A stretch of 62,969 nucleotides of DNA, filler included. It is 5 parts of 5 records of this genome, joined end to end, with 100 filler letters (N's around TTAATTAATTAA, not from the genome) between each part and the next. Parts side by side here need not be neighbours in the genome. Positions count along the whole stretch, not along the records: positions 8,959 to 26,676 come from SRR31156797_25140; 4 more parts are not named here. The stretch is one strand, 5' to 3'. A program made the position numbers and the translations under genes. Below the pieces are notes generated by a model. The model worked only from the letters and a program-made list of their open reading frames with translations, was not told the origin of the DNA and ran no database searches. This document shows positions 9,459-34,952 of this stretch, one piece after another (the stretch's first letter is position 1; each line of letters opens with the position of its first letter).

Positions 9459-9638
9459 CTGTTTCTTGATATCCTATGCTGTGTTCTGTACTTAAAACTC
9501 ATCTCTGCTTATAGATAGAGTATCAGCAAAAGTCAGGAAGATTCTCTTTAAGTCATCATTAATCATTATATTTTATTTTAAATGATAAAAATTGACATAA
9601 TACGAAAAATAGTGTAAAAAATAAATTGGAGGCAGGAG

Positions 9639-10388
9639 ATGTTACCCTATGTTCGTAGAAAAAAAATGCTTGAGTTATTGCATACGAAGGAGCTTGTTTA
9701 TCTGGATGAGCTTGTAGAGTATACAGGTGTTTCTCTTGCCACTGTGAGAAGGGATTTGAAGCTCTTCGAAGAGGAAGGTCAGGTTGAGTTCCTTCAGGGA
9801 GGGGCTGCAAAGATAAAGGTCAATAACCCTGAGCGAAATGTAAAAGAGAAGCTGACAATCAATGAAGATATGAAAGACATTGTTGCCGGCTATGCTGCCA
9901 CCCTTGTGAATGACGGGCAGTTTATCTATATAGGTCCCGGTACGACGGAGAACTGGATGTTTCCCAACCTCGGAGGGAAGGATGTCACCGTTGTGACGAA
10001 CGGAGCGCTCCATATCGGGAAGATTATGGATAATGGTATAAACGCGCAAATACTTGGTGGAGAACTAATTAACGATATTGCTGTAATCGTTGGGCATGAT
10101 GCTATCAGGCAGATTGAACAGATGAACTTTGATAAGTGCTTTTTGGGCGCGTCTGGATTTACCCTCGAGGCCGGAGCCTCAACTTCCCAATACGGTGTTG
10201 CCGAAATCAATAAGGTGGCTATAAAACGTTCAAGAAAGACATATTTGATGCTTGATTCAACAAAGCTTGGAAAGAACTCAAAGTACTCATTTGCTTCCGC
10301 TGATGAATTTGATACGATAATAGTCGCTGGTAATATCGAAAAGGAATACCTGAGCCTAGCGAATATATATTCAGTTGAAATGAACTGA
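9639..10388 (+). CDS. DeoR/GlpR-family transcriptional regulator
   Basis: HTH GVSLATVRRDL; sensor domain GPGTT, VVTNG, ILGGEL, FDKCFLGASG, DSTKLG. Confidence 0.95.
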   Translation: MLPYVRRKKMLELLHTKELVYLDELVEYTGVSLATVRRDLKLFEEEGQVEFLQGGAAKIKVNNPERNVKEKLTINEDMKDIVAGYAATLVNDGQFIYIGPGTTENWMFPNLGGKDVTVVTNGALHIGKIMDNGINAQILGGELINDIAVIVGHDAIRQIEQMNFDKCFLGASGFTLEAGASTSQYGVAEINKVAIKRSRKTYLMLDSTKLGKNSKYSFASADEFDTIIVAGNIEKEYLSLANIYSVEMN

Positions 10389-10443
10389 AGCCCCGCTGCC
10401 CGTCCGATTTGATGATATAGACTGACAGTGAAAGATTGCATCG

Positions 10444-10483
10444 CCAGTTGCCGTACGAATGTATTGGCAACTGGTTTTTTTTT
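10444..10483 (+). terminator. Rho-independent terminator after the DeoR gene
   Basis: CCAGTTGCC...GGCAACTGG followed by T9. Confidence 0.85.
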
Positions 10484-10492
10484 GTTTGAATA

Positions 10493-10600
10493 GTCATAAA
10501 TATTCATAAATATTCAAATAATGAAGAAAAAAAGCGATTTTAATTGACATGGGATGATCGTGTGTTATGATTGTATGAAATTAGATGAAACATGATGAAA
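10493..10600 (+). promoter_or_regulatory. Sigma-70 promoter of the ABC/mtn/BMC operon, flanked by 10-bp-periodic putative DeoR operator repeats
   Basis: TTGACA (10544) N16 TATGAT (10566) with a TGn extension. ATGAAA at 10575, 10585, 10595. Inverted-sense GTCAT/TTCAT/TTCAA at 10493, 10503, 10513. Confidence 0.7.
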
Positions 10601-10641
10601 TTGAAGGCATTGTGTTTCCCAACTATCATAAAGGAGCGATT

Positions 10642-11775
10642 ATGAAAAAGATAAGTAGTGTTCTGTTTACTGCTCTTCTCGTATTCGGGCTTGTAGCTTG
10701 TAGCGGAGGAAAGGCAGAAGAGAAAAAAGAGGTTCAAGCGGCTACTGAAGCACCGGCAGCGCCTGTTGCCACTGGTGATGTCCCGGCGCCATTCAATTCA
10801 GATAAGAAGATAAAGATTGCTCTTGTGAAAGAGTGGGGAACTGGTACCCATATGACCATGCATATCAATGGTGTTAAGAACGAAGCCGCCAAGTATGGGA
10901 TTGAGGTCAATGTTATTGATGCCAATAATGATCTTCAAGCTATGGCCGAGGGCATTGAGAACGCTGTGACCCAGGGCGTTGATGCCATTCTTACTTCCCA
11001 TGGGAAGAAAGATGCCCTCCAGGCATCTATCTCCAAGGCTCTGAGAGCCGGCATCCCCGTCATCGTATTCGACAATGACTTCGATGTCCCTTCTGATGTT
11101 GAATCCGGAATGCTTCTCTCTATGGATCAGTATGACTTGATGATGGGGCTAAAGTCTCAGATGTCTCTTGTGAGCTATATGGACGGTTCTGCGGATGTCA
11201 TTTACAACAGAGTTGCCAATGTCCCTCCCACAGACAAGAGGCATAGGATCTGGGAAGGCGGCATTCTCCCCACCTACACCGGTATCAATGTTCTGGAAAC
11301 CATCGACCTCGGCACAGCGGGAGTTATGGCCAAAGCGCAGACCGCTCTGGAGGCTATCCTCGACGCCGATAAGAATAATGAAATCGACGCCGTATATGCT
11401 GTCTGGGATGAGTATGCCAAGGGCTTTTACAATGCGATTCTCGCTTCAGGAAAGAAGCTGCCCCTGTTCTCAGTCGATATGTCTGACCAGGACCTTGCCA
11501 TGATGCAGACCCATCCCGAGATCTGGATCTCTTCTTCCGCCGTTGACCCTACTGTCATTGGTATTGTTCAGGTTCGGCTTGCCATGCTTGCTATCACCGG
11601 ACGTCCTCTGCCCAGATACTATTCCTTGACCCCTGTTCTTGTTAAATCGTCTGATCTTCCCACTATTGAGGAGAGACCGCTTTCTATGGCGGACCTCGCT
11701 GAGTTCTACTCTGGCTGGGGCTCTACCGACGAGTTTCTTGAGGAGTGGATGACTGCTCTGGCAGCTTCCAATTAA
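10642..11775 (+). CDS. Sugar ABC transporter substrate-binding lipoprotein (putative methylthioribose/5-deoxyribose-binding)
   Basis: Lipobox LVAC after MKKISSVLFTALL; RbsB-like IENAVTQGVDAIL, AGIPVIVFD. AAGGAG RBS favours ATG 10642. Substrate inferred from mtnK/mtnA linkage. Confidence 0.85.
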   Translation: MKKISSVLFTALLVFGLVACSGGKAEEKKEVQAATEAPAAPVATGDVPAPFNSDKKIKIALVKEWGTGTHMTMHINGVKNEAAKYGIEVNVIDANNDLQAMAEGIENAVTQGVDAILTSHGKKDALQASISKALRAGIPVIVFDNDFDVPSDVESGMLLSMDQYDLMMGLKSQMSLVSYMDGSADVIYNRVANVPPTDKRHRIWEGGILPTYTGINVLETIDLGTAGVMAKAQTALEAILDADKNNEIDAVYAVWDEYAKGFYNAILASGKKLPLFSVDMSDQDLAMMQTHPEIWISSSAVDPTVIGIVQVRLAMLAITGRPLPRYYSLTPVLVKSSDLPTIEERPLSMADLAEFYSGWGSTDEFLEEWMTALAASN

Positions 11776-11987
11776 GTATTGATACTGAAGCGGGATGGTC
11801 GCATTGCGCTTCAGTTACACTAGTCGTGGGATACTTCCAGAGGGATGGACGCCGGTGTTCGGCATCCCATTCCAAGGATTTTAAATCGTAAAATTGAAAG
11901 GGATCCTCTTGGATTTTTCAAGCATGGGCGGGCGTTCCGTCTCTGGTGAGAAACACGGGCAAGTACATTTTAGGTGGTTGAAGGAAT

Positions 11988-13496
11988 ATGAATTCTAAGG
12001 GCTTGGAAATGAAGGGAATTTCAATGGAATTCCCGGGAGTAAAAGCACTTGATGGAGTCGACTTCTCTGTAAAAAAGGGAGAAGTCCATGCCCTTATCGG
12101 TGCGAACGGCGCAGGAAAAAGTACCCTGATGAAGGTCCTTGCAGGTGTTAATAGAAACACTGCGGGGGAGATCTTCATCGACGGTAAAAAAGTTGAATTT
12201 CATAATCCAATGGATGCCAAAAAATATGGTATCGTTATTGTCTATCAAGAGGTAGATACTGCATTGATTCCGCATCTCACGGTTGCGGAAAACATCATGA
12301 TGGATTATTTGATTGGTGAACAGAAGAATCTTTTCATAGATTGGAATAAAATTCACCAGGAAGCAAAAGATGTATTAAAAAAGCTTGGTCTTGATATCGA
12401 TGTAAACAAGCTGATCAGCGAATTAACTCTATCGGAAAAACAGATGGTTCTTATTGGAAGAGCCGTTTTCCATAAAGCCGAATATCTAATCCTCGATGAG
12501 CCGACAGCGCCTTTGAGCGTAGAGGAAACAAATAAACTATTTGAGATTGTTGAAGCAATAAAAAATCGGGGTGTGAGTGTCATCTTCATCTCTCACAGAC
12601 TCGATGAAATTTTCAGGATTTGCGAACGCATCACAGTATTGCGGGACGGGAAGCTCGTCGGCGTCTATGATATCGGTTCGGAAACAATAGATTCTATTGT
12701 GGAAAAAATGCTTGGGCGAAAGCTGGAAGCCACATTCCCGAAGCATGATGTCGAGATCGGCAGTAAGATATTTGAGGTGAGGCAGCTCAGCGGGGAAGGC
12801 GGGATCAACCGCATAGATATGCATGTAAACGCCGGTGAGATTGTCGGCATCTCCGGTCTTGTCGGCGCAGGCAAGACAGAGCTGGTAAAACTCTTATTCG
12901 GGGCTGCGAAAACTCACAGCGGAGAGCTCATTCTTAAGGGGAGGGCGGTTGCTCCCAAGACACCGTCTCAAGCTGTGAAGACCGGTTTTGCTCTGGTTCC
13001 GGAAGAGCGAAGGCGAGAGGGGATACTTGTTCACGAATCTATTGAAACAAATGTTACCCTTCCCACCCTGAGAAAATACTGCGGCGGTCCGTTTATGAAT
13101 GCTTCTAAGATCAAGGAATCCGCAATACGCATGATCCGAACCGTAAAGATAAAAGCTCCCCATGAGAGAGTGCATGTCGCAAAATTATCCGGGGGAAACC
13201 AGCAAAAAGTGGCTATTGGTAAATGGCTTGTTTCTGATGCAGATATCTTTATGTTCGACGAGCCGACAAAGGGCGTGGATGTCGGCTCGAAAGCTGAGAT
13301 CTATAACCTTATCGGAAAGCTGGTCTCTCAGAAAAAAGCTGTGATCTACGCCACCTGCGAGTTCTCAGAAATTCTCGGTCTGACTGACAGAGTTTATGTG
13401 ATGTACAACGGAACCATTGCTGCCGAACTCGTTACGAGAAAAACAAATGAAGAAGAGTTGCTATTATACTCAACCGGCGGAGGAAAGAATGAATAA
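11988..13496 (+). CDS. Sugar ABC transporter ATP-binding protein (RbsA/MglA type, two ABC domains)
   Basis: GANGAGKST, ILDEPT, ISHRL, LSGGNQQKV, DEPTKGVDVG. Confidence 0.96.
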   Translation: MNSKGLEMKGISMEFPGVKALDGVDFSVKKGEVHALIGANGAGKSTLMKVLAGVNRNTAGEIFIDGKKVEFHNPMDAKKYGIVIVYQEVDTALIPHLTVAENIMMDYLIGEQKNLFIDWNKIHQEAKDVLKKLGLDIDVNKLISELTLSEKQMVLIGRAVFHKAEYLILDEPTAPLSVEETNKLFEIVEAIKNRGVSVIFISHRLDEIFRICERITVLRDGKLVGVYDIGSETIDSIVEKMLGRKLEATFPKHDVEIGSKIFEVRQLSGEGGINRIDMHVNAGEIVGISGLVGAGKTELVKLLFGAAKTHSGELILKGRAVAPKTPSQAVKTGFALVPEERRREGILVHESIETNVTLPTLRKYCGGPFMNASKIKESAIRMIRTVKIKAPHERVHVAKLSGGNQQKVAIGKWLVSDADIFMFDEPTKGVDVGSKAEIYNLIGKLVSQKKAVIYATCEFSEILGLTDRVYVMYNGTIAAELVTRKTNEEELLLYSTGGGKNE

Positions 13497-14511
13497 TTTG
13501 AAAGAGATGCCCGTTTTCCTGAACAGGAAAATGAGATTTGATATCTTTGGATTCCTTTACAGATATGGAACCATTGTCGTAACAATACTTGCGATAATCT
13601 ACTTTTCGGTGTCAGTAGAGAATTGGTTCACTTTCGGAAATATGACGAATATTTTCAGATCCGTTTCTATTGTCTGTTTGATAGCCCTGGCAATGACCAT
13701 GTCCCTCACTGTTGACGGATTCGACCTGTCGACGGCTGCCACCGCGTCATTTGCTGCCGTTATTGCCGCGAAGGTGATGATTATCTGGGAAATGCATCCT
13801 GTGATTGCCATCCTTCTGCCTGTCTCCGTGGGCTGTCTGATCGGGCTGGTGAATTCATTTCTGATCATCAGACTAGGGATCTCGGATATGCTGACTACAC
13901 TCTCTATGATGTTTGTCATCACAGGAATTTCCATTACATTCCAGGAAGGTTCGGCCATCTATAACTATATGCCCATGCTCGAGGGGGGTGTCGCTCCCGG
14001 TCTGATGAGTGAGAATTTCAAGGCCATCGGACAGGCGGAATTCCTTCAGATCCCCATACCGGTCTTTATCATGCTTGCCATCGCTGTCATTGTGCATGTT
14101 TTCCTGAACATGACGAAGTATGGCCGCTTTATGTACATGACGGGTGGCAACGAAGAAGCAGCGAGGCTTTCCGGTATTCCGACAAAGAAATTCAGAACCC
14201 TTGCCTATGTCCTTTCCGGAGCGATCGCAGCCCTTGCAGGCGTCGTTCTTTGCGCGAGACTCGGCTCAGGAGAAGTCGATGCCGCCGGGCCTTACCTGAT
14301 GGATGCGGTAGCGGCGGCCTATATCGGATATTCCGTCCTCGGCGCGGGTAAACCCAATGCCTTCGGTACGTTGCTCGGAGCCTTGCTCGTAGGCATTCTG
14401 ATGAACGGTCTGGTAATGATGAGCTTTCCATATTACTCACAGAATATTGTTAAGGGAGTCGTACTGATTCTGGGTCTTGGTCTTACATATTACAAGAGAA
14501 AGGGGTACTGA
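13489..14511 (+). CDS. Sugar ABC transporter permease (RbsC type)
   Basis: Multi-TM; GFDLS, TKYGRFMYMTGGNEEAARLSGI. ATG 13489 overlaps the ATPase stop. Confidence 0.93.
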   Translation: MNNLKEMPVFLNRKMRFDIFGFLYRYGTIVVTILAIIYFSVSVENWFTFGNMTNIFRSVSIVCLIALAMTMSLTVDGFDLSTAATASFAAVIAAKVMIIWEMHPVIAILLPVSVGCLIGLVNSFLIIRLGISDMLTTLSMMFVITGISITFQEGSAIYNYMPMLEGGVAPGLMSENFKAIGQAEFLQIPIPVFIMLAIAVIVHVFLNMTKYGRFMYMTGGNEEAARLSGIPTKKFRTLAYVLSGAIAALAGVVLCARLGSGEVDAAGPYLMDAVAAAYIGYSVLGAGKPNAFGTLLGALLVGILMNGLVMMSFPYYSQNIVKGVVLILGLGLTYYKRKGY

Positions 14512-14514
14512 AGA

Positions 14515-15726
14515 ATGGAAAGATACTACGAACTGAATACCGAAACAGTCATCGATTATGTTAATGAAAAAGTGAATGGTTTCTTTGCAGAGGATGCGGA
14601 ATTCGAGTGCACTGAGATCGGCGATGGAAATCTTAATTTGGTCTTTAGAGTAAAGGACGCGAGAAACTGTAAGAGCGTTATTGTAAAGCAATCGCTGCCA
14701 TATGTCAGAGCCGCCGGCGAGGACTGGCCCCTCGATATCGGAAGGGGTGAGATAGAAAGCAGAATCCTCGACATTGAGTATAAATTGACTGATGGGCTCG
14801 TACCTGAGATCCACCTTTATGACGGTGATATGTGCTGTATGATTATGGAAGATCTTTCTGATTATAGAATTATGAGATACGGCCTGATTGATCGAGAAAT
14901 ATATCCTGAATTTGTAGAGCAAATCTCAGATTTTATGGTCAAAACGCTTTTTCTCACATCTGATGTCGTGATGGAACATAAGGATAAAAAGGATTACGTA
15001 AAGAACTTTATCAATCCCGAGCTCTGCGAAATAACTGAGGATCTGGTTTATACCGAGCCTTTCAATAGCGGCGCAAGGAATGATATGGAAGAAAACCTTG
15101 TGGATTTCCATAAAAAGAACATTGTCGACGATCCGAAGCTTGCACTGGAGGCGGCGAAACTGAAGTTTGACTTCATGAATAATGCGCAGGCCCTTCTTCA
15201 TGGAGATCTTCATACGGGGTCAATTTTTGTTAATAAAGAGAGTACGAAGGTAATCGATCCTGAATTTGCTTTTTATGGACCCATCGCATACGACATCGGT
15301 GCCCTTGTCGCCAACCTGATAATGAGTTATTTATCAGCTTTTTTTGGAACAGAGCATCCTGAGAAGAAGGATGAGTACTGTCGCTGGATACTGAAAACCA
15401 TTAAGGATACTGTGGATGTAACGAAGGCTAAGTTCCTATGTGAATGGGACGGCGCCGTTACCGATCAGATGGCAAAGAAGGACGGTTTCAAAGAGTACTG
15501 GGTTGAGGATGTGTTTATTAATACCGCAGGTGTCTCAGGTTGTGAAATGACGCGGAGGACAGTCGGTTTCGCACATGTGAAAGACCTTGATGGAATGGAA
15601 GATGACGATGCCAGGTACAAGGCGAAAACTGTCAATCTTATCATAGCCAAAGAACTGATTATAAATAGAGCCGACTATGTATGCGGACAGGATTATCTCG
15701 ATCTCATCGACAAGCACTGTAAATAA
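14515..15726 (+). CDS. mtnK: 5-methylthioribose / 5-deoxyribose kinase
   Basis: EIGDGNLNLVF, KQSLPYVR, NPELCEITEDLVYTEP, LHGDLHTGSIF, IDPEFAFYGP, RRTVG. Confidence 0.95.
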   Translation: MERYYELNTETVIDYVNEKVNGFFAEDAEFECTEIGDGNLNLVFRVKDARNCKSVIVKQSLPYVRAAGEDWPLDIGRGEIESRILDIEYKLTDGLVPEIHLYDGDMCCMIMEDLSDYRIMRYGLIDREIYPEFVEQISDFMVKTLFLTSDVVMEHKDKKDYVKNFINPELCEITEDLVYTEPFNSGARNDMEENLVDFHKKNIVDDPKLALEAAKLKFDFMNNAQALLHGDLHTGSIFVNKESTKVIDPEFAFYGPIAYDIGALVANLIMSYLSAFFGTEHPEKKDEYCRWILKTIKDTVDVTKAKFLCEWDGAVTDQMAKKDGFKEYWVEDVFINTAGVSGCEMTRRTVGFAHVKDLDGMEDDDARYKAKTVNLIIAKELIINRADYVCGQDYLDLIDKHCK

Positions 15727-15744
15727 AGATAAGGAAGGTATTGA

Positions 15745-16803
15745 ATGAAGACTATTGTTCCCGCAAGACTGAACGATTCAAAAGATAAACTGGTTCTTCT
15801 TGACCAGACGCTGCTCCCTGGGGAAGAGAAATTCTTGGAACTGGATCAGAGAGAGGATATCTGGGAAGCCATTAAGAAGCTGAGGGTAAGAGGTGCACCC
15901 GCGATAGGGATTTCCGCTGCCTTCGGTATGTATGTTTGCTCGAACAGGGTAGATGCGGCTGATGTCCCCAGTTTCAAAAAAGAAGTCATTGAACTGAAAG
16001 AGTATTTCGCCACATCCCGTCCGACCGCTGTTAATCTGTTCTGGGCTCTCGATCGGATGTTCGATCGCTTCGAAAGCGAAGAGAAGGCTGGAAAATCGGT
16101 AGCGGAGATTAAGGCTGCTTTCCTTGAGGAAAGTGAAGAGATCCTTCGGGAGGACCAGGAGATGGGCGAGGCCATCGGTAGGTATGGACTTGAACTGCTT
16201 AAGCCCGGCATGGGGCTGCTGACCCATTGCAATGCCGGTGGTCTCGCCTGTTCGGGAATCGGCACGGCCCTGGCTCCCATGTATGCAGGGCATGATGCGG
16301 GCTATGGTTTCAAGATCTATGCCGATGAGACCAGACCCCTCCTTCAGGGATCAAGGCTGACAACTTATGAGTTAAACAAGGCCGGTCTCGATGTAACGGT
16401 TATCTGCGATAATATGGCCTCTATTGTGATGAGGCAGGGGAAGATCGGTGCCGTGCTTGTGGGAACCGACAGGATTACGGCTAACGGCGATGTCATCAAT
16501 AAGATTGGAACATCGGGCGTGGCCATACTCGCAAAGGAGTACGGAGTTCCTTTCTATGTCCTCGGACCCTATTCAACCATAGACCTCAATACGGCAACCG
16601 GCAACGAGGTCGAGATTGAGCTTCGCGACAGTGATGAAATCGGAAACGGTTTTGGAAAAAGGACCGCTCCCGAAGAGGTCGACGCTTATAACCCGGCCTT
16701 CGATATTACGGATCATAAATATGTTTCGGCCATTATAACCGAGAAAGGGATCGTAAGGCCTCCCTATAAAGAAAACCTTGCACGATTGTTTAAAGCGCAG
16801 TGA
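15745..16803 (+). CDS. mtnA: Methylthioribose-1-phosphate / 5-deoxyribose-1-phosphate isomerase
   Basis: LDQTLLP, VRGAPAIG, SRPTAVNL, THCNAGGLA, ETRPLLQGSRLT, NKIGT, NPAFDIT. Confidence 0.96.
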   Translation: MKTIVPARLNDSKDKLVLLDQTLLPGEEKFLELDQREDIWEAIKKLRVRGAPAIGISAAFGMYVCSNRVDAADVPSFKKEVIELKEYFATSRPTAVNLFWALDRMFDRFESEEKAGKSVAEIKAAFLEESEEILREDQEMGEAIGRYGLELLKPGMGLLTHCNAGGLACSGIGTALAPMYAGHDAGYGFKIYADETRPLLQGSRLTTYELNKAGLDVTVICDNMASIVMRQGKIGAVLVGTDRITANGDVINKIGTSGVAILAKEYGVPFYVLGPYSTIDLNTATGNEVEIELRDSDEIGNGFGKRTAPEEVDAYNPAFDITDHKYVSAIITEKGIVRPPYKENLARLFKAQ

Positions 16804-16810
16804 GGAAGCA

Positions 16811-17581
16811 ATGTCTGAATATATGACGGAAATCCAGGCTCGCAAAGCGATTTGTGAGATTGGCGATAAGATGTATTTCAAAGGGTATGTCGCCGCCAAT
16901 GATGGGAACATATCAGTCAAAATCAGTGATGATACCATCATAGTGACACCTACGGGTGTCAGTAAAGGCGGCATGACAGCGAATTCCCTCGTTAAAATGA
17001 AACTTGACGGGACTGTCATAGGGAAGAACAAGCCCAGCTCCGAGGTAAAGATGCATATCAGGGTGTATCAGCTGAACCGAAATGTCAAATCGGTTGTGCA
17101 CGCCCACCCGCCTGCGTCGACAGCCTTCGCCATAGCCGGAATCCCGATGGACAGACCCATAATGAGCGAGTCCATTCTCACCTTGGGTGTCGTTCCAGTG
17201 GCGGAATACGCGCTGCCCGGAACGAAGGAAGTGCCCGACTCGATTGAACCCTATGTTAACTCGCATAATGCTGTATTGCTTGCCAATCACGGCCTGCTGA
17301 CCTGGGGAGACGATATCACTCAGGCTATGTACAGAATGGAATCGGCGGAACAGTACTGCAATATTATGATTAACCTGAAATCCATAGGTGAGCCGAAGGA
17401 ATTCAGCTGTTCTCAGGTTAGCGATCTGATTTCCATCAGGGAGAGGCTCGGGATCGATGCCGGTGGGGTTCCCCCCTGTGATGGAAACACTGGCAACAGG
17501 ACGAGCGCCGATGCGGCTCAGGGGGATCAGGCAAAGCTGATAGAGACGATCACCCGCCAGGTCCTGTCTCAGTTGAAATAG
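16811..17581 (+). CDS. Class II (metal) aldolase, FucA/Ald2/DrdA-like, with C-terminal encapsulation peptide
   Basis: DGNIS, TPTG, PSSEVKMH, VHAHP, LLANHG; G/T/A linker then QAKLIETITRQVLSQLK. Confidence 0.9.
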   Translation: MSEYMTEIQARKAICEIGDKMYFKGYVAANDGNISVKISDDTIIVTPTGVSKGGMTANSLVKMKLDGTVIGKNKPSSEVKMHIRVYQLNRNVKSVVHAHPPASTAFAIAGIPMDRPIMSESILTLGVVPVAEYALPGTKEVPDSIEPYVNSHNAVLLANHGLLTWGDDITQAMYRMESAEQYCNIMINLKSIGEPKEFSCSQVSDLISIRERLGIDAGGVPPCDGNTGNRTSADAAQGDQAKLIETITRQVLSQLK

Positions 17582-17590
17582 GGGGGGCGT

Positions 17591-19048: not shown

Positions 19049-19389
19049 TGAAGGCATTAGGTATTCTCGAGCTCTGCGGTTATTCGACGGCATTGCTTGC
19101 GTCGGACAGCATGTGTAAAGCAGCTGATATCAGAATTGTCGCATTTGATTTTAACAAACCGGGCGCTGCGGATCTGGATAAGATACCGCTGCTTGCTCAG
19201 ATTAAATTTGTCGGCGGAGTGGATGACGTTAAGGCCGCGCTGGAAGCCGGTATACGCTGTGCTGAAAAGTACAATGACAGGGAAGAGATCCTGGGAAGGG
19301 TCATCCCGAATTACGATGAGGGACTGACAGGCTTAATTAAGCTTACGAAGATAAAGAAAGTTAATCGAAACATACGGAGGACATTATGA
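19048..19389 (+). CDS. Divergent BMC-H shell protein
   Basis: [26 protein letters not shown]...[13 protein letters not shown]...VIPN. Confidence 0.85.
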
Positions 19390-19661
19390 GTAGCGCGATT
19401 GGATTTATTGAAACACGGGGGCTGACTGCGGCGATTGAGGCATCTGATAATATGTTGAAGACCGCTATGGTCGAACTTGTGGGAATGGAAAAGATTGGAT
19501 CAGGCCTTGTCACTGTTATCGTTAAGGGCGAGGTCGGGGCCGTGAAGGCCGCAACGGAAGCCGGTGCGGAAACAGCAAGCGCTCTTGGAGAACTCGTTGC
19601 CATGCATGTCATACCGCGCCCCCATGCGGATGTTGCCAAGATACTTCCTTCCCTGAAATAG
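19386..19661 (+). CDS. BMC-H shell protein (PduA/EutM type)
   Basis: [22 protein letters not shown]...[21 protein letters not shown]...HVIPRPH. Confidence 0.97.
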
Positions 19662-19670
19662 AAGCGGACT

Positions 19671-19964
19671 ATGGAAAACAAACCGCTGTTGGTATTGGAG
19701 ATTCAAAACTATTCGGAATCCTTATTGATCTGCGACAAGCTCTCAAAATCTGCGGACCTCAAGCTCGTGCATCTGCAGACCAGTTTGGGAGGGCGTCTGG
19801 TGACATTGGTATTCAGCGGTACCAGTTCCGACTGCAGAATCGCTAAAGATCTGGCATGGCAAAGCTACGCAGGAACGAAGTTATTGAAGGTCTGCGACAC
19901 GATAGACCGGCCTTCAGAACAGTTATCCAACTACTTCAAAACAGGAGAATTTGATAATGAGTGA
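19671..19964 (+). CDS. Highly divergent BMC-H shell protein
   Basis: LVLEIQNY...[13 protein letters not shown]...[20 protein letters not shown]...TIDRP; BMC-domain pattern and size within the shell cluster. Confidence 0.75.
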
Positions 19965-20259
19965 TACAAAATCAGCCGTAAAGCTCGGCACCGCGATAGG
20001 TTTCATTGAAACAAGAGGACTGACCGCAGCCATTGAAGCGGCAGATAACATGCTGAAGTCGGCAGAGGTCGCGCTCGTAGGGATGGAGAAGATCGGTTCC
20101 GGTCTGGTCACTGTCATCGTCCAGGGTGATGTGGGGGCGGTGAAGGCCGCTACCGAAGCCGGTTCGGAAAGCGCTTCGGCTCTTGGAGAGCTCGTCGCCT
20201 CCCATGTTATTCCCAGGCCTCATGACAATGTCGGAAATCTTCTTCCGTCTGTCAAGTAA
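19957..20259 (+). CDS. BMC-H shell protein (PduA/PduJ type)
   Basis: [24 protein letters not shown]...KIGSGLVT...GDVGAVKAA...[15 protein letters not shown] before ATG 19957. Confidence 0.97.
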
Positions 20260-20265
20260 ACGGTT

Positions 20266-21000
20266 ATGGAGGATGTCGTTCGCCAGGTGACCGCCAGAGT
20301 GATGGCCGCCCTTGCAGCGGGGGAGCCATGCGGGCATACCAGTGCTGAAGGTTCCGTCTCTTCTCATGCTTACCGGCATGGAGTCACTGTAGGAGTCTCC
20401 AATAGGCATGTACACCTGGACGCCGCTTCTTTGGAGACGCTGTTCGGGCCGGGGTATGAGTTAGAGCCGTTTAAGGAGCTTAGCCAGCCGGGTGAGTTTG
20501 CCTCAAGCGCATTCGTTGATATTGAGCACGATGGCTATCGCATAGAAAGACTCAGGGTTCTCGGACCTCTGCGCGGCAAAACTCAGATAGAGTTATCAGA
20601 GACCGATGCCAGGAGCCTGAAGATGACGCTGCCTATTCGCAGCTCGGGCAAGCTGGAAGGCACGCCCGGTCTCAGGATCTCAGGCCCTGCGGGAAGCCTG
20701 GACCTGAAGGAGGGATGCATCATCGCCTCAAGGCATATTCATCTGCATAGCTCAGATGCTCAGCGTCTGGGGGTGAAGGACGGTCAGACGGTTCACGTCA
20801 GAATGCTTGGCGAAAAATCCGGTGTGATAGGCGATGTCGTGTGCAGGGTCAGCGACCGCTACAGTTTTGAGCTTCACATCGATACGGATGACGCAAATGC
20901 TTTTCTGCAGAAGACCGGCGATATTGCGGAAATCCTACTTGAACCATTTTACTTTAATCACAAAGAGGAAGCCTATGTTGTTAGGAACGATAACCGGTAA
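20266..21000 (+). CDS. pduL: BMC phosphate acyltransferase PduL with N-terminal encapsulation peptide
   Basis: MEDVVRQVTARVMAAL; GVSNRHVHL, LSQPGEF, RVLGPLR, SRHIH, LHIDTDDANA. Confidence 0.94.
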   Translation: MEDVVRQVTARVMAALAAGEPCGHTSAEGSVSSHAYRHGVTVGVSNRHVHLDAASLETLFGPGYELEPFKELSQPGEFASSAFVDIEHDGYRIERLRVLGPLRGKTQIELSETDARSLKMTLPIRSSGKLEGTPGLRISGPAGSLDLKEGCIIASRHIHLHSSDAQRLGVKDGQTVHVRMLGEKSGVIGDVVCRVSDRYSFELHIDTDDANAFLQKTGDIAEILLEPFYFNHKEEAYVVRNDNR

Positions 21001-21211
21001 TGTTGTTTCAACTAAAAAAATAGAAAAGCTCGTCGGATGCAAGTTTATGAAAGTAAAGATCGATTCAAGGTCTGAAGAGATTGTTGCCGTAGACGCAGTC
21101 GGCGCGGGTATTGGAGAACAGGTCCTTGTTACGACAGGCCACAATGCCAGATTCGCTATGGCTGGAGCGGAACAAGCTGTCGATGCCGTGATCGTCGGAA
21201 TTGTCGACTGA
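20975..21211 (+). CDS. BMC-P vertex protein (EutN/CcmL/PduN family)
   Basis: MLLGTITGNVVSTKK...VAVDAVGAGIGEQVLV...DAVIVGIVD; GAGGA RBS before ATG 20975. Confidence 0.95.
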   Translation: MLLGTITGNVVSTKKIEKLVGCKFMKVKIDSRSEEIVAVDAVGAGIGEQVLVTTGHNARFAMAGAEQAVDAVIVGIVD

Positions 21212-21213
21212 TA

Positions 21214-21753
21214 ATGAACGATTCGCTAGGAGTTGTTGAATTCACTTCGATACCCGCCGGTTACAGATTGTATAACCGTATTCTGAAAGACGTTCAGCTG
21301 AGTCTCTTCCGGGATATGATTGTTGCCCCTGCCAGATTCATAATCATGCTGAAGGGGAGTTATGCTGCCATTGAACATGCTGTCGAATGGGCCGTTCATT
21401 CATCTGCGGAAGATATTCTGGACTACTCAATTATTGGGGCCGTGCATGATGCACTTCGCTTATGGCTGGGGAATGGAACCCATTCAGATGCGGGTACGGA
21501 CATCGGCCTCTTTGAAACAGAAACCCTGTGCGCTGGCATTGAACTGACAAACCGCCTGCTCCATGGAGCGCCGGTGGGGTTGCTGCATATGAACTGGAGC
21601 ACGGAAATGCATGGGCGCTGCCTGATCGCTGTCAGCGGTTCAGTATCCTCAATACAGACGGCCCTTGAATATGCCGGCGGCGCATTGATTTCAAATGTAG
21701 AGCCGACAGTCCTTAGAAGCATCACGGCGAATACCGGAGATTGTAATGGCTAA
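21214..21753 (+). CDS. BMC-T tandem-domain shell protein (PduT-like, divergent)
   Basis: SLGVVEFTSIPAG...GSYAAIEHAV; second domain IGLFETET...GRCLIAVSGSVSSIQTAL; 179 aa. Confidence 0.85.
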   Translation: MNDSLGVVEFTSIPAGYRLYNRILKDVQLSLFRDMIVAPARFIIMLKGSYAAIEHAVEWAVHSSAEDILDYSIIGAVHDALRLWLGNGTHSDAGTDIGLFETETLCAGIELTNRLLHGAPVGLLHMNWSTEMHGRCLIAVSGSVSSIQTALEYAGGALISNVEPTVLRSITANTGDCNG

Positions 21754-22894
21754 TTTCTATGCACCTCAGAATAATCTGCTCGGTCCCGGCTGTCTTGAAC
21801 AGATCACGGATGAGATCGCAGCAAAGGGATTTGGAAAGGCCCTCATCGTTACCGACTCCTTTATGGAGAAAACCGATGCGTTCAAACGTCTCCTTGCCGC
21901 TCTGACGAAAGCGGGTTGCTGCTGGAAGGTTTACAGCGGCACCGTTCCCAACCCGACGGTAGAAAATGTAGAGGACGCTTACGGCCTGATCTGCAAGGAC
22001 CCCTGTGATTTCATTGTATCCCTCGGTGGCGGTTCGGTACATGATTGCGCGAAAGCCGTCGGCATTACAGCGACAAGCGGCGGCTGCATAAGGCAGTATG
22101 CGGGAACGGGAAAGCTCAAGGCTCCGATCCTGCCCTTAGTCGCGGTGAATACAACGGCCGGTACGGGCTCTGAGGTAACAGGATTCTGTATCATCACCGA
22201 TAAGCAGAGACGGGTTAAGCTTGCGATTGTCGATCCGGCAATGACATCCTGGATATCGGTGAATGATCCGACGACGATGCTTTCTAAACCTCCGGCGTTG
22301 ACGGCGGCAACCGGCATGGACGCTTTGACCCATGCCATCGAGGCCTATGTTTCGCTAAACGCAAGCTGCGTAACCGATGCTCTGGCGATCAAGGCCGTGG
22401 ATATGATTATCAAGAATCTGCCGGCGGCTGTCGAGAACGGAGGCGATCTGGAGGCTCGTGAAAGGATGGCTGAGGCGCAGTTCCTCGCGGGTATGGCCTT
22501 TTCCAATGCCTCCCTCGGCTGGGTTCATGCCATAGCCCATCAGCTTGGGGGGATCTACAACCTGCCCCACGGCATATGTAATGCGGTTCTCCTTCCCTAT
22601 GTCGTGGCCTACAACGGCAGGCATATGACCGGTCGCCGTTTCGCCGATATCGCGGCCTGTTTCGGACGGGAGCTCTTTAACGGGCAGGACCGTTTCAGTT
22701 CAAGGATCGTCGCGGATGCTATTGGAAAACTGAACGCCCGATTGGGTATTCCGAAGAGGCTGCGCCATATGGGCGTAAAGAAAGATGATTTCGGGGTGAT
22801 CGCGAATCATGCGCTTGAGGATGCCTGTGCCTCGACTAACCCCGTTCAGACAGGAGAGCCGGGCATCACAGCTATCTTGGAAGCGGCCTGGTGA
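21746..22894 (+). CDS. Iron-containing alcohol dehydrogenase
   Basis: GGGSVHDCAK, NTTAGTGSE, GMDALTHAIE, HAIAHQLGG, PHGICN. Confidence 0.95.
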   Translation: MANFYAPQNNLLGPGCLEQITDEIAAKGFGKALIVTDSFMEKTDAFKRLLAALTKAGCCWKVYSGTVPNPTVENVEDAYGLICKDPCDFIVSLGGGSVHDCAKAVGITATSGGCIRQYAGTGKLKAPILPLVAVNTTAGTGSEVTGFCIITDKQRRVKLAIVDPAMTSWISVNDPTTMLSKPPALTAATGMDALTHAIEAYVSLNASCVTDALAIKAVDMIIKNLPAAVENGGDLEARERMAEAQFLAGMAFSNASLGWVHAIAHQLGGIYNLPHGICNAVLLPYVVAYNGRHMTGRRFADIAACFGRELFNGQDRFSSRIVADAIGKLNARLGIPKRLRHMGVKKDDFGVIANHALEDACASTNPVQTGEPGITAILEAAW

Positions 22895-22909
22895 CAAGGA
22901 TGGATTGAC

Positions 22910-24244
22910 GTGAAGGTAATAGTGATAGGCGGTGTCGCCGCAGGTATGAGCGCCGCCGGAAAGATACGGCGCAATATGCTCGAATCTGAGGTCGTTGTCT
23001 ATGAAAAGGGCAGCACCCTATCGTACGGAGCCTGCGGCTTGCCGTACTATGTCAGCAATGTGATAAAGGATCGTGATGCTATGATCGCCAGAACGGCTGA
23101 GGAGTTCAGAGCGCAGGGAATATCAGTGAAGCTCTTCCATGAGGTCGTAGGGCTGAAGACGGATGAACATACTGTCGTGGTCAGGGATCTGCAGAATGGC
23201 GGGATCTTTACGGATAGCTATGACAAGCTTGTTATCACCAGCGGTGCTTCCGCCGTCGTTCCTCCGTGGAAAGGGGTGGAGCTCGACAATATCTTCGTCC
23301 TGTCAAATCTTGAGGATGGAGATTCCATCAAGCAGGCGGCGCATCATAGCCGCGTTAAATCGGTGACAGTCATAGGAGCCGGGTTCATAGGTGTCGAGCT
23401 GGTGGAAGCCTTCCTTGAGATAGGGAAACGGGTTACTCTTGTGGAGCTGCAGAACCAGATTCTCCCCGGCTTTGATAAGGATATGGCGCAGCCCCTTCAG
23501 GAAGAGCTGGAGAGCAAGGGGGCGGTCCTCAAGCTTGGGGAAAAGGTCGAACGCTTCGAGGGCGCTTCCTGTGTTGAACGCGTTGTCACGAACGTAAACT
23601 CCTATGCCTCCGATCTCGTTGTGATTGCCGTCGGTGTCAGACCGAACACATCCTTTTTGGACGGTACGGATATTGAAAGGCTTGGCAACGGCGCGGTCGT
23701 TGTAGACAGGAGCATGCGGTCGAGCCATCCCGACATCTTTGCCGGAGGAGACTGTGCGACAGTATTTCACAAGGTCCTGGTACGCAGCGATTCCTACATC
23801 CCTCTTGGCACCAACGCGAATAAGCAGGGGAGGATGATTGGCGACATCCTCTGTTCTGTTCCTGTGGATTATCAGGGGACTCTCGGAACCGCCATGATTA
23901 AGGTTTGCGATTATGAAGCCGCGAAGACCGGCATTACCGAAAAGGACGCCATTCTGAATCATATCCCCTACCAGACTGTGAGCGTGAAAGCTGGAAGCCA
24001 TGCCGCCTACTATCCCCGTCAGGAGCCGACCTACATTAAGCTCGTCACGGCTCCGGATTCAAAGAAAATCCTTGGTGCGCAAGTTGTTGGCAAAGAGGGG
24101 GCTGCCCTTCGTGCCGATATCTTTGCTATGGCGGTGCACACAGGTATGACCGCTCCCGAGCTCGGCTATGTCGACTTCGGTTATTCCCCGCCCTTCGCAG
24201 GCGTTTGGGATGCTGTAAGCGTTGCAGCTAACAGGGTGAAATAG
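22910..24244 (+). CDS. CoA-disulfide reductase / NADH (per)oxidase family flavoprotein
   Basis: IGGVAAGMSAA, redox Cys SYGACGLPY, IGAGFIGVE, AGGDCA, C-terminal YSPPF. Confidence 0.9.
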   Translation: MKVIVIGGVAAGMSAAGKIRRNMLESEVVVYEKGSTLSYGACGLPYYVSNVIKDRDAMIARTAEEFRAQGISVKLFHEVVGLKTDEHTVVVRDLQNGGIFTDSYDKLVITSGASAVVPPWKGVELDNIFVLSNLEDGDSIKQAAHHSRVKSVTVIGAGFIGVELVEAFLEIGKRVTLVELQNQILPGFDKDMAQPLQEELESKGAVLKLGEKVERFEGASCVERVVTNVNSYASDLVVIAVGVRPNTSFLDGTDIERLGNGAVVVDRSMRSSHPDIFAGGDCATVFHKVLVRSDSYIPLGTNANKQGRMIGDILCSVPVDYQGTLGTAMIKVCDYEAAKTGITEKDAILNHIPYQTVSVKAGSHAAYYPRQEPTYIKLVTAPDSKKILGAQVVGKEGAALRADIFAMAVHTGMTAPELGYVDFGYSPPFAGVWDAVSVAANRVK

Positions 24245-24256
24245 CGGAGGCCGCCG

Positions 24257-25082
24257 ATGATAGACAAACGGGTAGACTTAAAAGATGCGGCCGGGAGCGT
24301 CAGGGATCGAAGCACTCTGGCTCTCGGCGGGAATACATTGAACCGGGGCGCTATGGCTTTCTGCCGTGAGTTGGCGAGACAGAAGAAGAGAGCTGGCTCT
24401 GGTTAAAACCGCCGGAGGAATGGATGTCGATTTGCTTGTCCTTGCCGATTGCGTCAGATCGGTTGCCGCCGGTTTTATCAGCTTTGAGACTAAATACGGG
24501 CTTGCTGATAATTACCGCAGGGCAGTTCAGTCAGGAAGCGTAAAGGCCGATGAGCATGCATGCTATACCATCGTGTCCGCTCTCCGCGCTGCGGTTGCGG
24601 CTCTTCCGTTCATGCCGGTCCGGGGGCTTGTAAACTCGGATCTTATCTCTGCAAACGACTACTTCAAAGAGGTCGAATGCCCTTTTACAGCTGAGAAGCT
24701 GACAGCCGTAAAGGCTATTGTTCCGGATGTCGCGGTTATACATGCGCATGAAGCCGATCGAAACGGCAATGCTCTTATCAAAGGTCCGAAATTTGATGAT
24801 GTCCTTATGAGCCGGGCTGCCAGGCGGGTTATCGTCACGGCTGAAAGGATCCTTCCGGAAAGTTATTTCCAGAATAAGACGACGGCTGTTGATATTCCTC
24901 ACTTTCTGGTCTCCCATGTCGTGCATGTGCCGGGAGGCGCTTTCCCGAATGCCTGTTCTCCCTGTTACGAGGTTTCTGAGTCAGAGCTCAGGGAGTATAT
25001 GGCGCTTCAGGATCCGGCGGGCTTGGAGGAGTACCTGAAGAAACATGAGCGAAAAGATTATCAGGGAAAAAGGAGTTTCTGA
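24257..25082 (+). pseudogene. CoA-transferase family I-like subunit A, frameshifted near 24389 (pseudogene, slippage variant or assembly error)
   Basis: GGAGG + ATG 24257 gives MIDKRVDLKDAAGSVRDRSTLALGGNTLNRGAMAFCRELARQKKR then a stop at 24404. The homologous continuation ELALVKTAGGMD...LRAAVAALPFMP...CPFTAE...PDVAVIHA..AD..GN is in the +1 frame. Confidence 0.8.
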
Positions 25083-25819
25083 TGCCGGTCAAGATTGATG
25101 CCACCCTCCGGAAGGCCGATATGATGGTCACTGCCATAGCACGGCTGATGAGGAACGGAGAAACTGTATTTCATGGCGTCTCTTCGCCCATCCCTCTCGC
25201 TGCGGTCAGCCTGGCAAAGGCGCTGCATGCCCCTGACATGGTCTATTTGAATATACCCGGCGGCGTGGATGGCAAGCCATCCAGGATATTGAACCACTCT
25301 ACCGCCGGCGCTGATATTCTTGATCGCGCCCCTGCCTATTTTCCATTGATGGAGGTCTTTGACTTATCCATGAGAGGGGGACTGGATGTGGCTTTTCTTT
25401 CGGGTGTCCAGTTCGATCCGTATGGTAATGTGAATGCAAGTGTGATCGGGGATTACTGTAAGCCTAAGGTCAGGCTTCCCGGCGGTGCCGGTTCGGCAGT
25501 GCTGATTCCCACCGCTAAAAAACCCATAATCTGGCGTACCGTCCATAACAAACGCACTTTCGTGAAGAAATGTGATTTTAATACGACCCGCGGTGAGCTC
25601 TACCGTATCGTGACGCCTTTGTGCGTATTCAGAATGGAAAAGGGCAGGGTCGTTCTGGACAGAGTGTTCCCCTACTCCTCGATCGAAGAGATCAGAGAAA
25701 ACACGGGTTTTGAGCTGATCTATGATGAGCTGGTCTACGAACCGGAACCGACAGCTGAAGAGCTCAGGATCCTGCGGATGATAGATCCGAAAAAGAATCG
25801 GACTATGGAATTTAAATAG
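25082..25819 (+). CDS. CoA-transferase family I-like subunit B (GctB/AibB-like)
   Basis: GVSSPIPLAA...HAPD, DVAFLSGVQFDPYGNVNASVIG, RLPGGAGS, IVTPLCVF, IRENTGF. Confidence 0.88.
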   Translation: MPVKIDATLRKADMMVTAIARLMRNGETVFHGVSSPIPLAAVSLAKALHAPDMVYLNIPGGVDGKPSRILNHSTAGADILDRAPAYFPLMEVFDLSMRGGLDVAFLSGVQFDPYGNVNASVIGDYCKPKVRLPGGAGSAVLIPTAKKPIIWRTVHNKRTFVKKCDFNTTRGELYRIVTPLCVFRMEKGRVVLDRVFPYSSIEEIRENTGFELIYDELVYEPEPTAEELRILRMIDPKKNRTMEFK

Positions 25820-25897
25820 CTGTCTTCATCGTTTGTTATTGTTTTTAAGTTTCCGGGTTGTCTATACACTTGGCTCTTATAAAAGGAGGATCCTATA

Positions 25898-26332
25898 ATG
25901 TTAAATAATATTCCCAAGATACTATCACCCGAGATCGTCAAGTTCCTGATGGAAATGGGGCATGGGGATGAATTGATCATTGCCGATGGTAATTTCCCGT
26001 CAGTAACATGCGCGCAGAGGCTTGTACGTGCGGACGGACATACCGGCACGGATATTCTCGATGCCGTTCTGCAGCTTTTTCCACTGGATCCATATGGTGA
26101 TGAGATACCTGTGTCTCTGATGGAAAAGGTTCCGGGAGACAGCGTGGAGACTCCCATTTGGGATGAATACAGGGATATCGTGAAAAAGTACAATCCCGAT
26201 TTCTCTGAATTCAACTTCATTGAGCGCTTTGATTTCTATGATAGGGCTAAAAAATCCTTTGGTGTTATAGCAACGGGTGAAAGTGCCCTCTATGCCTGCC
26301 TGGTGCTGAGAAAAGGGATCATTGCTGGCTAA
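25898..26332 (+). CDS. RbsD/FucU-family sugar mutarotase
   Basis: ILSPEIVKFLMEMGHGDELIIADGNFP, ERFDFYDRAK, ATGESALYA. Confidence 0.92.
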   Translation: MLNNIPKILSPEIVKFLMEMGHGDELIIADGNFPSVTCAQRLVRADGHTGTDILDAVLQLFPLDPYGDEIPVSLMEKVPGDSVETPIWDEYRDIVKKYNPDFSEFNFIERFDFYDRAKKSFGVIATGESALYACLVLRKGIIAG

Positions 26333-29487: not shown

Positions 29488-29525
29488 AAAAGGCCCGTTA
29501 AAGAAAACTTCAACGGGCCTTTTTT
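29486..29525. terminator. Bidirectional terminator between hpnG and hpnH
   Basis: AAAAAAGGCCCGTT...AACGGGCCTTTTTT. Confidence 0.88.
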
Positions 29526-29540
29526 CTAAATTATTCAAAA

Positions 29541-30557: not shown

Positions 30558-30596
30558 GGTCTTAACCTCATTTCCGCCGCATGGGGACGGGTTGTA

Positions 30597-32113: not shown

Positions 32114-32116
32114 AGA

Positions 32117-34813: not shown

Positions 34814-34952
34814 TAAATTATGCCCGCTGTGGTAGGACCGTCAGGGGTCTTTTTTAAACAGGGTGAATAATCAAAGAAGGCAAACTATCATACAGTTTGC
34901 CTTCTATCATTACCACGAATCTCAGTTTTCCGCATAGAAATGGAAAGTCTAA

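Follow-up and report, generated by a model that had tools for sequence, protein, structure and literature searches.

We describe a locus of 20 genes located at positions 9639–26332, all on the + strand, of a stretch of 62,969 nucleotides (the whole stretch analysed, filler letters included, is hereafter called the window). The locus falls in the part of the window derived from the record SRR31156797_25140 (positions 8,959 to 26,676). It combines the three enzymes of the dihydroxyacetone phosphate (DHAP) shunt, namely a kinase (MtnK), an isomerase (MtnA) and a class II aldolase, with the genes of a bacterial microcompartment (BMC). At the level of gene linkage and protein targeting, the comparison of sequences supports a real link between the shunt and the shell rather than a chance adjacency, while the chemistry is predicted from the gene families. 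Indeed, we consider the shunt to be wired to the shell, as the initial annotation of this DNA had proposed, because the aldolase bears a targeting-like helix that tracks shell linkage, because neither another aldehyde source nor another signature enzyme was found, and because the arrangement is conserved and recurs among relatives. A catabolic operon for imported 5-deoxy-pentoses, with the last steps of the DHAP shunt inside the BMC, is in our judgement moderately probable; that the ketose-1-phosphate made by the kinase and the isomerase is cleaved inside this shell is considerably more probable than that.

Gene content of the locus

Gene identities were assigned by scanning the window proteins against the Pfam and NCBIfam profiles, applying the cut-offs of the models. 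The initial annotation had described a single co-directional run from a DeoR regulator to a mutarotase, and every gene that it listed was found, on the + strand and tightly packed, with overlaps or gaps of 0–20 bases over most of the locus. The genes are as follows (ABC, ATP-binding cassette; CoA, coenzyme A; ORF, open reading frame):

9639–10388, + strand: DeoR-family regulator (PF00455, 133 bits; PF08220)
10585–11775, likely start 10642 (Met20), + strand: sugar ABC substrate-binding lipoprotein (PF13407, Peripla_BP_4, 98 bits)
11988–13496, + strand: ABC transporter ATPase with two ABC domains (PF00005, 182 bits, two stretches)
13417–14511, + strand: ABC permease (PF02653, 124 bits)
14515–15726, + strand: predicted MtnK/DrdK-type 5-methylthioribose / 5-deoxyribose kinase (TIGR01767 equivalog, 462.7 bits, cut-off 275)
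15745–16803, + strand: predicted MtnA/DrdI-type aldose-1-phosphate isomerase (TIGR00512, 398.4 bits, cut-off 279; PF01008, 262 bits)
16823–17581, + strand: class II aldolase with a C-terminal linker and encapsulation-peptide-like helix (PF00596, 170 bits)
17591–19048, + strand: CoA-acylating aldehyde dehydrogenase, AldDH (PRK15398, 636 bits)
19048–19389, + strand: divergent BMC-H, H1 (PF00936, 51.7 bits, profile positions 1–63)
19386–19661, + strand: canonical BMC-H, H2 (PF00936, 98 bits)
19671–19964, + strand: divergent BMC-H, H3 (PF00936, 27.4 bits, barely above the cut-off of 24.5)
19951–20259, + strand: canonical BMC-H, H4 (PF00936, 103.5 bits)
20266–21000, + strand: PduL-type phosphotransacylase (PF06130, 222 bits, domain from residue 42)
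20972–21211, + strand: BMC-P, vertex pentamer (PF03319, 82 bits, residues 48–125 of the ORF 20834–21211)
21214–21753, + strand: BMC-T with two BMC domains (PF00936, 60.8 bits, two stretches)
21746–22894, + strand: iron-type alcohol dehydrogenase, Fe-ADH (PF00465, PF25137)
22910–24244, + strand: flavoprotein of the CoA-disulfide reductase / NADH oxidase family, CoADR-like (PRK09564, 528 bits, cut-off 458)
24257–25082, + strand: glutaconate-CoA-transferase-family subunit A-like protein (PF01144, 53 bits on the ORF 24366–25082)
25082–25819, + strand: glutaconate-CoA-transferase-family subunit B-like protein (PF01144, 69 bits)
25898–26332, + strand: RbsD/FucU-family mutarotase (PF05025, 128 bits)

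MtnK aligned from residue 21 to the structure of the B. subtilis MtnK (2olc, 295 bits), and MtnA scored 436.6 bits against PRK05720 (cut-off 271). These two proteins and a class II aldolase, when the later enzymes of methionine salvage are lacking, define the DHAP shunt. In agreement with the initial annotation, no mtnB or mtnD was found in the locus; in the genomes of five relatives, each carrying one MtnK, MtnB over the cut-off was detected in 0/5 and MtnD (ARD) in 0/5, these being metagenome-assembled genomes (MAGs), so that the absence is not proven. The DeoR gene also heads the locus in the related loci L002, L003, L008 and L050–L052 and in six genomes of the same gene order. Read from Met20, the binding protein starts with a lipoprotein-type signal and a lipobox-like ‘LVAC’, and it showed a weak likeness to the ribose, xylose and allose binders of NCBIfam. 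The mutarotase reached 119 bits on the L-fucose mutarotase model, below the cut-off of 141.

The locus holds a full metabolosome set, i.e. BMC-H, BMC-P and BMC-T proteins together with AldDH, PduL and an alcohol dehydrogenase. The best structures for AldDH were 5jfl and 4c3s, with ~430 bits each. Orthologues of H1 occur at the same place in L001, L004, L005 and L050–L052. The BMC-P probably corresponds to the last 79 codons of its ORF, starting from Met47, near 20972. For Fe-ADH no NCBIfam model exceeded its cut-off, the best ones being PRK09860 (428 bits) and the lactaldehyde reductase model (386 bits). The signature enzymes of characterised metabolosomes were not found among the 20 locus proteins by the Pfam and NCBIfam scans: the list included DeoC, RpiB, glycyl-radical enzyme, diol dehydratase, EutBC, FucI and FucK, all of which the initial annotation had reported as missing, and no Rha gene was found either. 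In the BMC part, the same scans revealed no aldehyde-forming enzyme besides the aldolase.

A chimeric contig, which the initial annotation had named among the findings that would refute its proposal, does not account for this organization. The contig is not chimeric at the joint between the aldolase and AldDH genes, because the joint is crossed by a contig from an independent DNA run of another study (X2, labelled as coral metagenome), and because the locus L001, from a Spirochaetales MAG, shares the gene order. The X2 contig covers positions 9000–18254 with 25 differences, and further independent contigs cover the remainder, up to 26676; from MtnK through to the CoA-transferase-like gene, L001 repeats the gene order of the window, at ~80% protein identity. 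In the other runs (X3–X5) the uncovered parts are uninformative. Relative to the window, the BMC-T gene of the runs X2, X3 and X4 has an in-frame insertion of 3 bases after position 21674.

A targeting-like helix on the aldolase tracks shell linkage

The aldolase gene begins 19 bases past MtnA; its ORF was called from 16778, and the start is most likely Met16 (16823), matching the relatives. The protein retains the Glu and the three His found at the aligned positions of E. coli FucA (in ‘PSSE’, ‘HAH’ and ‘NHG’), residues which we take to be catalytic and metal-binding in FucA. On the NCBIfam subfamily models it scored 140 bits for OtnC (3-oxo-tetronate-4-phosphate decarboxylase, cut-off 250), 114 for the haloarchaeal ribulose-1-phosphate aldolase (cut-off 300), 110 for FucA (cut-off 264) and 89 for MtnB (cut-off 137). 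Among the structures of the PDB, it matched 6voq with 94 bits and DrdA (6btd) with 86 bits.

The C-terminus of the aldolase presents an extension of 50 residues, composed of a Gly/Pro-rich linker followed by an amphipathic helix (‘...AKLIETITRQVLSQLK’). Encapsulation-peptide-like helices are also found at the N-terminus of AldDH (‘TQIEDIVRQVVSKTL’, followed by a Pro-rich linker) and at the N-terminus of PduL (‘MEDVVRQVTARVMAAL’). Inspection of the sequences revealed no targeting extension on MtnK, MtnA, the CoADR-like flavoprotein or the CoA-transferase-like proteins.

We took 53 distinct aldolase orthologues (the tails of L088 and L143 are not in these counts) and compared their C-terminal 32 residues with a simple amphipathic-helix pattern. 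The pattern matched 25/26 tails from shell-linked loci vs 11/27 tails from stretches without shell genes, and 311 of 8600 shuffled tails (3.6%). The sole shell-linked miss, L120, has a similar helix with another spacing. Considering the 11 matching tails without shell genes, two loci (L009 and L013) lie on contigs that carry BMC genes further on, L003, L006, L011, L012, L053, L058 and L062 reach the contig end within a few kb, and L002 and L008 are truly without a neighbouring BMC. The other 16 orthologues without nearby shell genes have short tails or no such helix. In terms of length, the relatives without the helix range from 225 to 260 amino acids vs 261–319 for those with the tail.

The tagged aldolases also share conserved cysteines both before and within the linker (‘SC..Q’, ‘GGVPxC’ and, often in Bacillota, ‘CGC’; positions 17400–17520 in the window), which the untagged orthologues do not have. 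These cysteines could bind a metal or form a disulfide.

Conservation of the arrangement among relatives

The initial annotation had suggested searching other genomes for mtnK and mtnA inside shell loci. The combination recurs in two phyla and in metagenomes: shunt and shell genes are arranged together in Spirochaetales and in several Bacillota lineages, and their adjacency is found in at least three gene orders. We identified 34 genome loci containing the aldolase, 11 of which hold MtnK; after contig extension, six of these 11 adjoin BMC genes (L001, L004, L005, L007, L009 and L013). In the genome G009, for example, the order is aldolase, CoADR, CoA-transferase-like genes, ABC transporter, MtnK, MtnA, PduL, BMC-P, AldDH, shell genes and FucU, and in G007 the shell genes stand upstream.

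Then, we scanned metagenomes with the MtnK alignment, which yielded 559 relatives, and examined the best 80 of them. Shell genes were present in 18/80 loci, and shell genes or AldDH/PduL in 21/80; among the loci of this set carrying the same aldolase clade, shell genes were present in 13/20.

In an order-level sample of 301 genomes, taken from the order of G005, MtnK was found in 25 genomes, and 13 of the 29 MtnK places adjoin shell genes, in 13/25 genomes. Six genomes of this sample have exactly the gene order of the window with an MtnK identity of 65–70%, and, because of this, the whole locus may have been transferred between Bacillota and spirochaetes, an event to which the comparison points. 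One locus with exactly the window's order (L139, in G172:C1) lies on a single 3.8-Mb contig: this genome is probably finished and would be a convenient organism for experiments, which the presence of the locus in complete-looking genomes puts within reach. On a quick MtnK tree, the shell-linked label required 15 changes, vs a mean of 22.7 after shuffling (0/500 shuffles were as low); the shell-linked MtnK are clustered, yet they do not form one clade.

Two close relatives present a different state. L002 (10001–10759) and L008 (7563–8333) carry the DeoR-ABC-MtnK-MtnA-aldolase operon with the helix kept, followed by unrelated genes. It looks like the BMC part was lost or relocated, or that another shell is used. 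An SPU-type BMC (RpiB, DeoC and three BMC-P) is found elsewhere in G001 and G002, and is the only BMC of G002, whereas G001 has both. A sister locus (L010, 9968–17621, and L131, 627–7500) combines a 53%-identical tagged aldolase with PduL, BMC-P, AldDH, a PduS-like flavoprotein and shell genes; its front end consists of an ABC importer, a xylose-isomerase-like TIM barrel, an FGGY kinase and a second aldolase, and the genome (G010) has no MtnK.

Dihydroxyacetone-kinase genes edge some of the shunt loci (Dak1 in L007, 14267–14774, and in L006, 11394–11838; Dak1 and Dak2 in L017, 111–1767), with no evident role if the aldolase yields DHAP. In two Bacillota loci, a gene of the PF01547 solute-binding-protein family stands inside the BMC module, between PduL and the gene that follows it (L004, 12670–13839; L005, 7770–8789).

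Proposed pathway and alternative explanations

The candidate substrates, 5-deoxyribose and methylthioribose, are suggested by family membership and by the published specificity of DrdK/MtnK, and both the place of each step and the flows between them are predictions as well. Under the control of DeoR, the lipoprotein and the ABC transporter would take up free 5-deoxy-D-ribose and/or 5-methylthioribose, and the FucU-like mutarotase would equilibrate the anomers. In the cytosol, MtnK would phosphorylate C1 and MtnA would isomerise the product to 5-deoxyribulose-1-phosphate or methylthioribulose-1-phosphate. The ketose-1-phosphate would then enter the shell, where the tagged aldolase would release DHAP together with either acetaldehyde or 2-(methylthio)acetaldehyde, with DHAP leaving the shell towards glycolysis. 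The tagged AldDH would convert the aldehyde to acyl-CoA with production of NADH, and the tagged PduL would convert acyl-CoA to acyl-phosphate, a source of ATP, recycling CoA. Where present, Fe-ADH would reduce part of the aldehyde to the alcohol and recycle NAD+.

Among the alternatives, the locus could be an ordinary PVM-like BMC (a catalogued type, described below) that serves a 6-deoxyhexose or some other sugar of plants or algae, in which the specificity of the MtnK/MtnA-like enzymes has shifted, a kinase-first route leads to e.g. fuculose-1-phosphate, and the aldehyde in the shell is lactaldehyde. We consider this unlikely. A 6-deoxyhexose would suit the FucU-family gene and the likeness of Fe-ADH to lactaldehyde reductase (386 bits), although both models are under their cut-offs and, in PMC6079011, a fucose-mutarotase homologue is also described in a drd cluster without BMC. 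The same source describes the aldolase family as promiscuous towards aldehydes, and the sister locus L010/L131 feeds its aldolase from another kinase and isomerase. Conversely, MtnK and MtnA are far above their equivalog cut-offs, six further pentoses and hexoses were not accepted by the characterised DrdK (PMC6079011), and the locus contains no FucI, FucK or Rha gene. A route from ribose, or from nucleoside-derived ribose-1-phosphate, through ribulose-1-phosphate to DHAP and glycolaldehyde, with the shell detoxifying the latter, appears quite improbable: the haloarchaeal ribulose-1-phosphate aldolase is the second-best NCBIfam match of the aldolase, but its 114 bits are far below the cut-off of 300; the binding protein weakly resembles ribose-family binders and RbsD/FucU proteins include ribose pyranase, whereas MtnK is an equivalog-level methylthioribose kinase, no nucleoside phosphorylase is found in the operon, and the sole nearby PNP-family gene looks like the hopanoid gene HpnG.

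Two unrelated neighbours, i.e. a cytosolic DHAP-shunt operon beside a generic aldehyde/ethanol BMC whose substrate is made elsewhere, would be compatible with the GC content, which is ~0.45 over 10–16 kb (transporter and MtnK part) and 0.51–0.55 over 16–26 kb, from the aldolase on, and with L002 and L008, which carry the shunt operon alone. Nevertheless, it is the shunt aldolase that bears the helix tracking shell linkage, the BMC part has no other enzyme forming an aldehyde, the adjacency recurs in different gene orders and phyla, and the gaps from MtnK to AldDH are of 0–20 bases, and we regard such a coincidence as very improbable.

Returning to the encapsulated 5-deoxy-pentose pathway, several observations weigh against it. 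The aldolase passes none of the NCBIfam subfamily models, its best match being a decarboxylase (OtnC), and it is no closer to DrdA than to two other structures of the aldolase family (6voq and 6vop). A 6-deoxyhexose would be equally compatible with the FucU-like gene and the Fe-ADH, and the model assigns no function to two to three conserved genes (CoADR-like and CoA-transferase-like A/B). In the wider group, linkage to a shell is absent for most MtnK genes, because among the metagenome loci with at least 8 kb on both sides only 5/24 have shell genes (within the best 80 of 559). L002 and L008 are close relatives that have a tagged aldolase and no BMC beside it. The shell module is reused with different sugar front ends and is not bound to MtnK/MtnA, because the sister locus of G010 has another kinase and isomerase and no MtnK. 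Lastly, the gene spacing and the short contigs of one RNA library suggest that the shunt and BMC genes may be co-transcribed, but the RNA run (X4) gave short contigs only, on the permease, MtnK, AldDH and the BMC-T/ADH joint, which are compatible with DNA carry-over, demonstrate no single transcript and are weak evidence of expression. The best promoter-like site (10544–10571) and a terminator-like site (26378–26394) are consensus matches only, and such sites are no commoner than in shuffled sequence.

Comparison with known pathways and microcompartments

The DHAP shunts characterised so far (DrdK-DrdI-DrdA of B. thuringiensis and MtnK-MtnA-Ald2 of E. coli ATCC 25922) have the same kinase, isomerase and class II aldolase in an operon, and likewise yield DHAP together with either acetaldehyde or 2-(methylthio)acetaldehyde (PMC6079011, PMC10986504). 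The DrdK of B. thuringiensis acts on 5-deoxyribose and methylthioribose with similar efficiency and on none of six other sugars tested, the Drd trio produces DHAP and acetaldehyde, some drd clusters carry sugar transporters, and one cluster carries the fucose-mutarotase homologue mentioned above (PMC6079011). In contrast to the window locus, the known shunts are cytosolic, with no shell, AldDH, PduL or targeting tail on the aldolase; the window aldolase is distantly like DrdA (86 bits). For E. coli the shunt serves in the use of a carbon source, though not for growth by fermentation, and the inability of this species to ferment 5-deoxyribose differs from the role proposed here (PMC10986504).

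On the side of the microcompartments, PVM-like BMC loci have a class II aldolase as signature enzyme and a DeoR regulator, occur in Firmicutes, including gut species, and are uncharacterised (PMC4207490, PMC8217296, PMC8156839). The window locus fits this type by published description only, i.e. by the descriptors of Axen 2014, in line with the guess of the initial annotation that the catalogues may list loci of this kind under PVM-like; unlike our reading, the papers assume a substrate of the fucose/rhamnose kind. A match to a characterised type was also looked for, and PVM, GRM5 and SPU were all excluded by gene content. In PVM (Planctomycetes, Verrucomicrobia) and GRM5 (Clostridium phytofermentans), similarly to the proposed pathway, the shell takes in a sugar-1-phosphate, which an encapsulated class II aldolase splits into DHAP and an aldehyde, and AldDH then acts on the aldehyde; their substrate comes from FucI/FucK-type enzymes, absent from the window locus, their aldehyde is lactaldehyde, and GRM5 adds a glycyl-radical diol dehydratase, of which the locus has none (PMC4207490, PMC8217296). 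The proposed pathway is, by analogy, the organelle logic of PVM/GRM5 with a different front end. For the SPU (sugar-phosphate utilisation) BMC, too, a shell-enclosed conversion of a deoxy-pentose phosphate to acetaldehyde has been proposed; this type is defined by DeoC (PF01791) and RpiB (PF02502), with 2-deoxyribose-5-phosphate as substrate, and neither family is found in the window locus.

The initial annotation knew of no characterised encapsulated DHAP shunt, and our search of the full-text literature found no paper joining the shunt to a microcompartment, nor any relevant one on 5-deoxyribose, methylthioribose or methylthioadenosine in this context, with some of the papers judged by title and abstract, even if the locus diagrams in the supplements of the catalogues may show the genes unnamed. 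The main texts of PMC4207490, PMC8217296 and PMC8156839 are silent on MtnK, MtnA, methylthio- compounds and 5-deoxyribose, and the text of Ravcheev 2019 (PMC6620236) contains no methylthio, deoxyribose, MtnA, MtnK or aldolase. Among the DHAP-shunt papers mentioning CoA, none concerns CoADR or CoA-transferase, as judged by their listing, and the ‘PVM-like’ literature from 2021 adds nothing new on BMCs. Thus, the shell type has almost surely been catalogued already, and the proposed substrate and pathway are, as far as can be searched, not in print.

5-Deoxyribose and methylthioribose are unavoidable by-products of radical S-adenosylmethionine (SAM) and polyamine chemistry and are excreted by many cells. 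If the proposed pathway is correct, many anaerobes would ferment SAM-derived 5-deoxy sugars inside an organelle, and in communities of the gut, of mats and of corals the two sugars would be passed on by cross-feeding and used for growth. A widespread, uncharacterised BMC type that the catalogues presume to be fed by fucose or rhamnose would gain a concrete substrate. Moreover, the capture of the aldehyde in a shell for substrate-level phosphorylation would explain the gain of strict fermenters from a pathway that E. coli uses only with respiration (PMC10986504).

The flavoprotein and the CoA-transferase-like pair

The locus also flags two conserved accessory enzymes. The CoADR-like flavoprotein exceeds the cut-off of PRK09564 and scored 472 bits on TIGR03385, below the cut-off of 578.8, with 363 bits to the structure 3cgb; 29 orthologues retain its Cys42. 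The fold is common also to NADH oxidases and peroxidases, and the protein stands between the CoADR and the NADH-oxidase models.

The initial annotation had named the two following genes CoA-transferase-like A/B. The family fold holds, with weak PF01144 matches, whereas the ordinary transferase activity that such a name implies probably does not, because the pair has no counterpart of the Glu that is catalytic in E. coli AtoA. Indeed, in place of the SENG motif of AtoA, which contains this Glu, subunit B-like has a conserved ‘LNIPGGVD’ and a 5-residue gap in 5/5 aligned orthologues. Subunit A-like scored 93 bits to 5mzw_A and has a conserved ‘EHACYT’ motif, and subunit B-like 103 bits to 5n03_D, so that the identity of the pair to solved proteins is low (93–103 bits). 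These best PDB matches (5mzw–5n03, and 6co6/6con) share the fold of the two-subunit family I CoA-transferases and likewise lack the Glu of the beta subunit; the former are, presumably, the AibA/B decarboxylase and the latter the IpdAB hydrolase. For subunit B-like, the Protein Atlas returned only generic ‘CoA-transferase subunit beta’ clusters. The gene of subunit A-like is split in the window, its first 43 codons, from the ATG at 24257, being out of frame with the remainder. In an independent contig, two additional bases following 24386 bring both parts into one frame; the split is due either to a frameshift in this strain or to misassembly of a short AG-rich stretch.

In the order-level sample, CoADR was found in 9/11 shell-linked places vs 1/16 of the others, the latter on a truncated contig, and in the metagenome set (the best 80 of 559) shell or core genes accompany CoADR in 12 of 13 loci. 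On these counts, we rejected the idea that CoADR and the CoA-transferase-like pair accompany the shunt regardless of the shell. A complementary distribution of Fe-ADH and CoADR was not borne out either: in 32 rows, many of them from incomplete stretches, both were present in 5, CoADR alone in 12, Fe-ADH alone in 1 and neither in 14.

By analogy with the reductive cleavage of 2-ketopropyl-CoM, the flavoprotein and the CoA-transferase-like pair might cleave the thioether of (methylthio)acetyl-CoA, which AldDH would form from methylthioribose, to acetyl-CoA and methanethiol; we regard this as improbable. A thiol would attack the sulfur to give acetyl-CoA and a methyl-disulfide, and the flavoprotein would reduce the disulfide with the NADH made by AldDH, freeing methanethiol. 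If so, the metabolosome would be redox-neutral without an alcohol dehydrogenase, with one acetyl-CoA (one ATP) per aldehyde, and would represent an oxygen-independent route of sulfur salvage.

Host and genomic surroundings

The host is probably a spirochaete, as the nearest relatives of the window genes are all from Spirochaetales MAGs; flagellar and chemotaxis genes are found in the flanks of the locus. The GC step occurs within the locus, despite the synteny of the whole locus in distant carriers.

A PNP-family gene at 28768–29487 was considered as a nucleosidase supplying the sugar and rejected, its best score being for the hopanoid protein HpnG, next to HpnH. It opens a hopanoid gene set, unexpected for a spirochaete, located directly downstream (window positions 28768–37387), which comprises the HpnG-like phosphorylase, HpnH (517 bits, cut-off 225), BstC/BstB-like proteins, an HpnN-like RND transporter, an aminotransferase and IspH.

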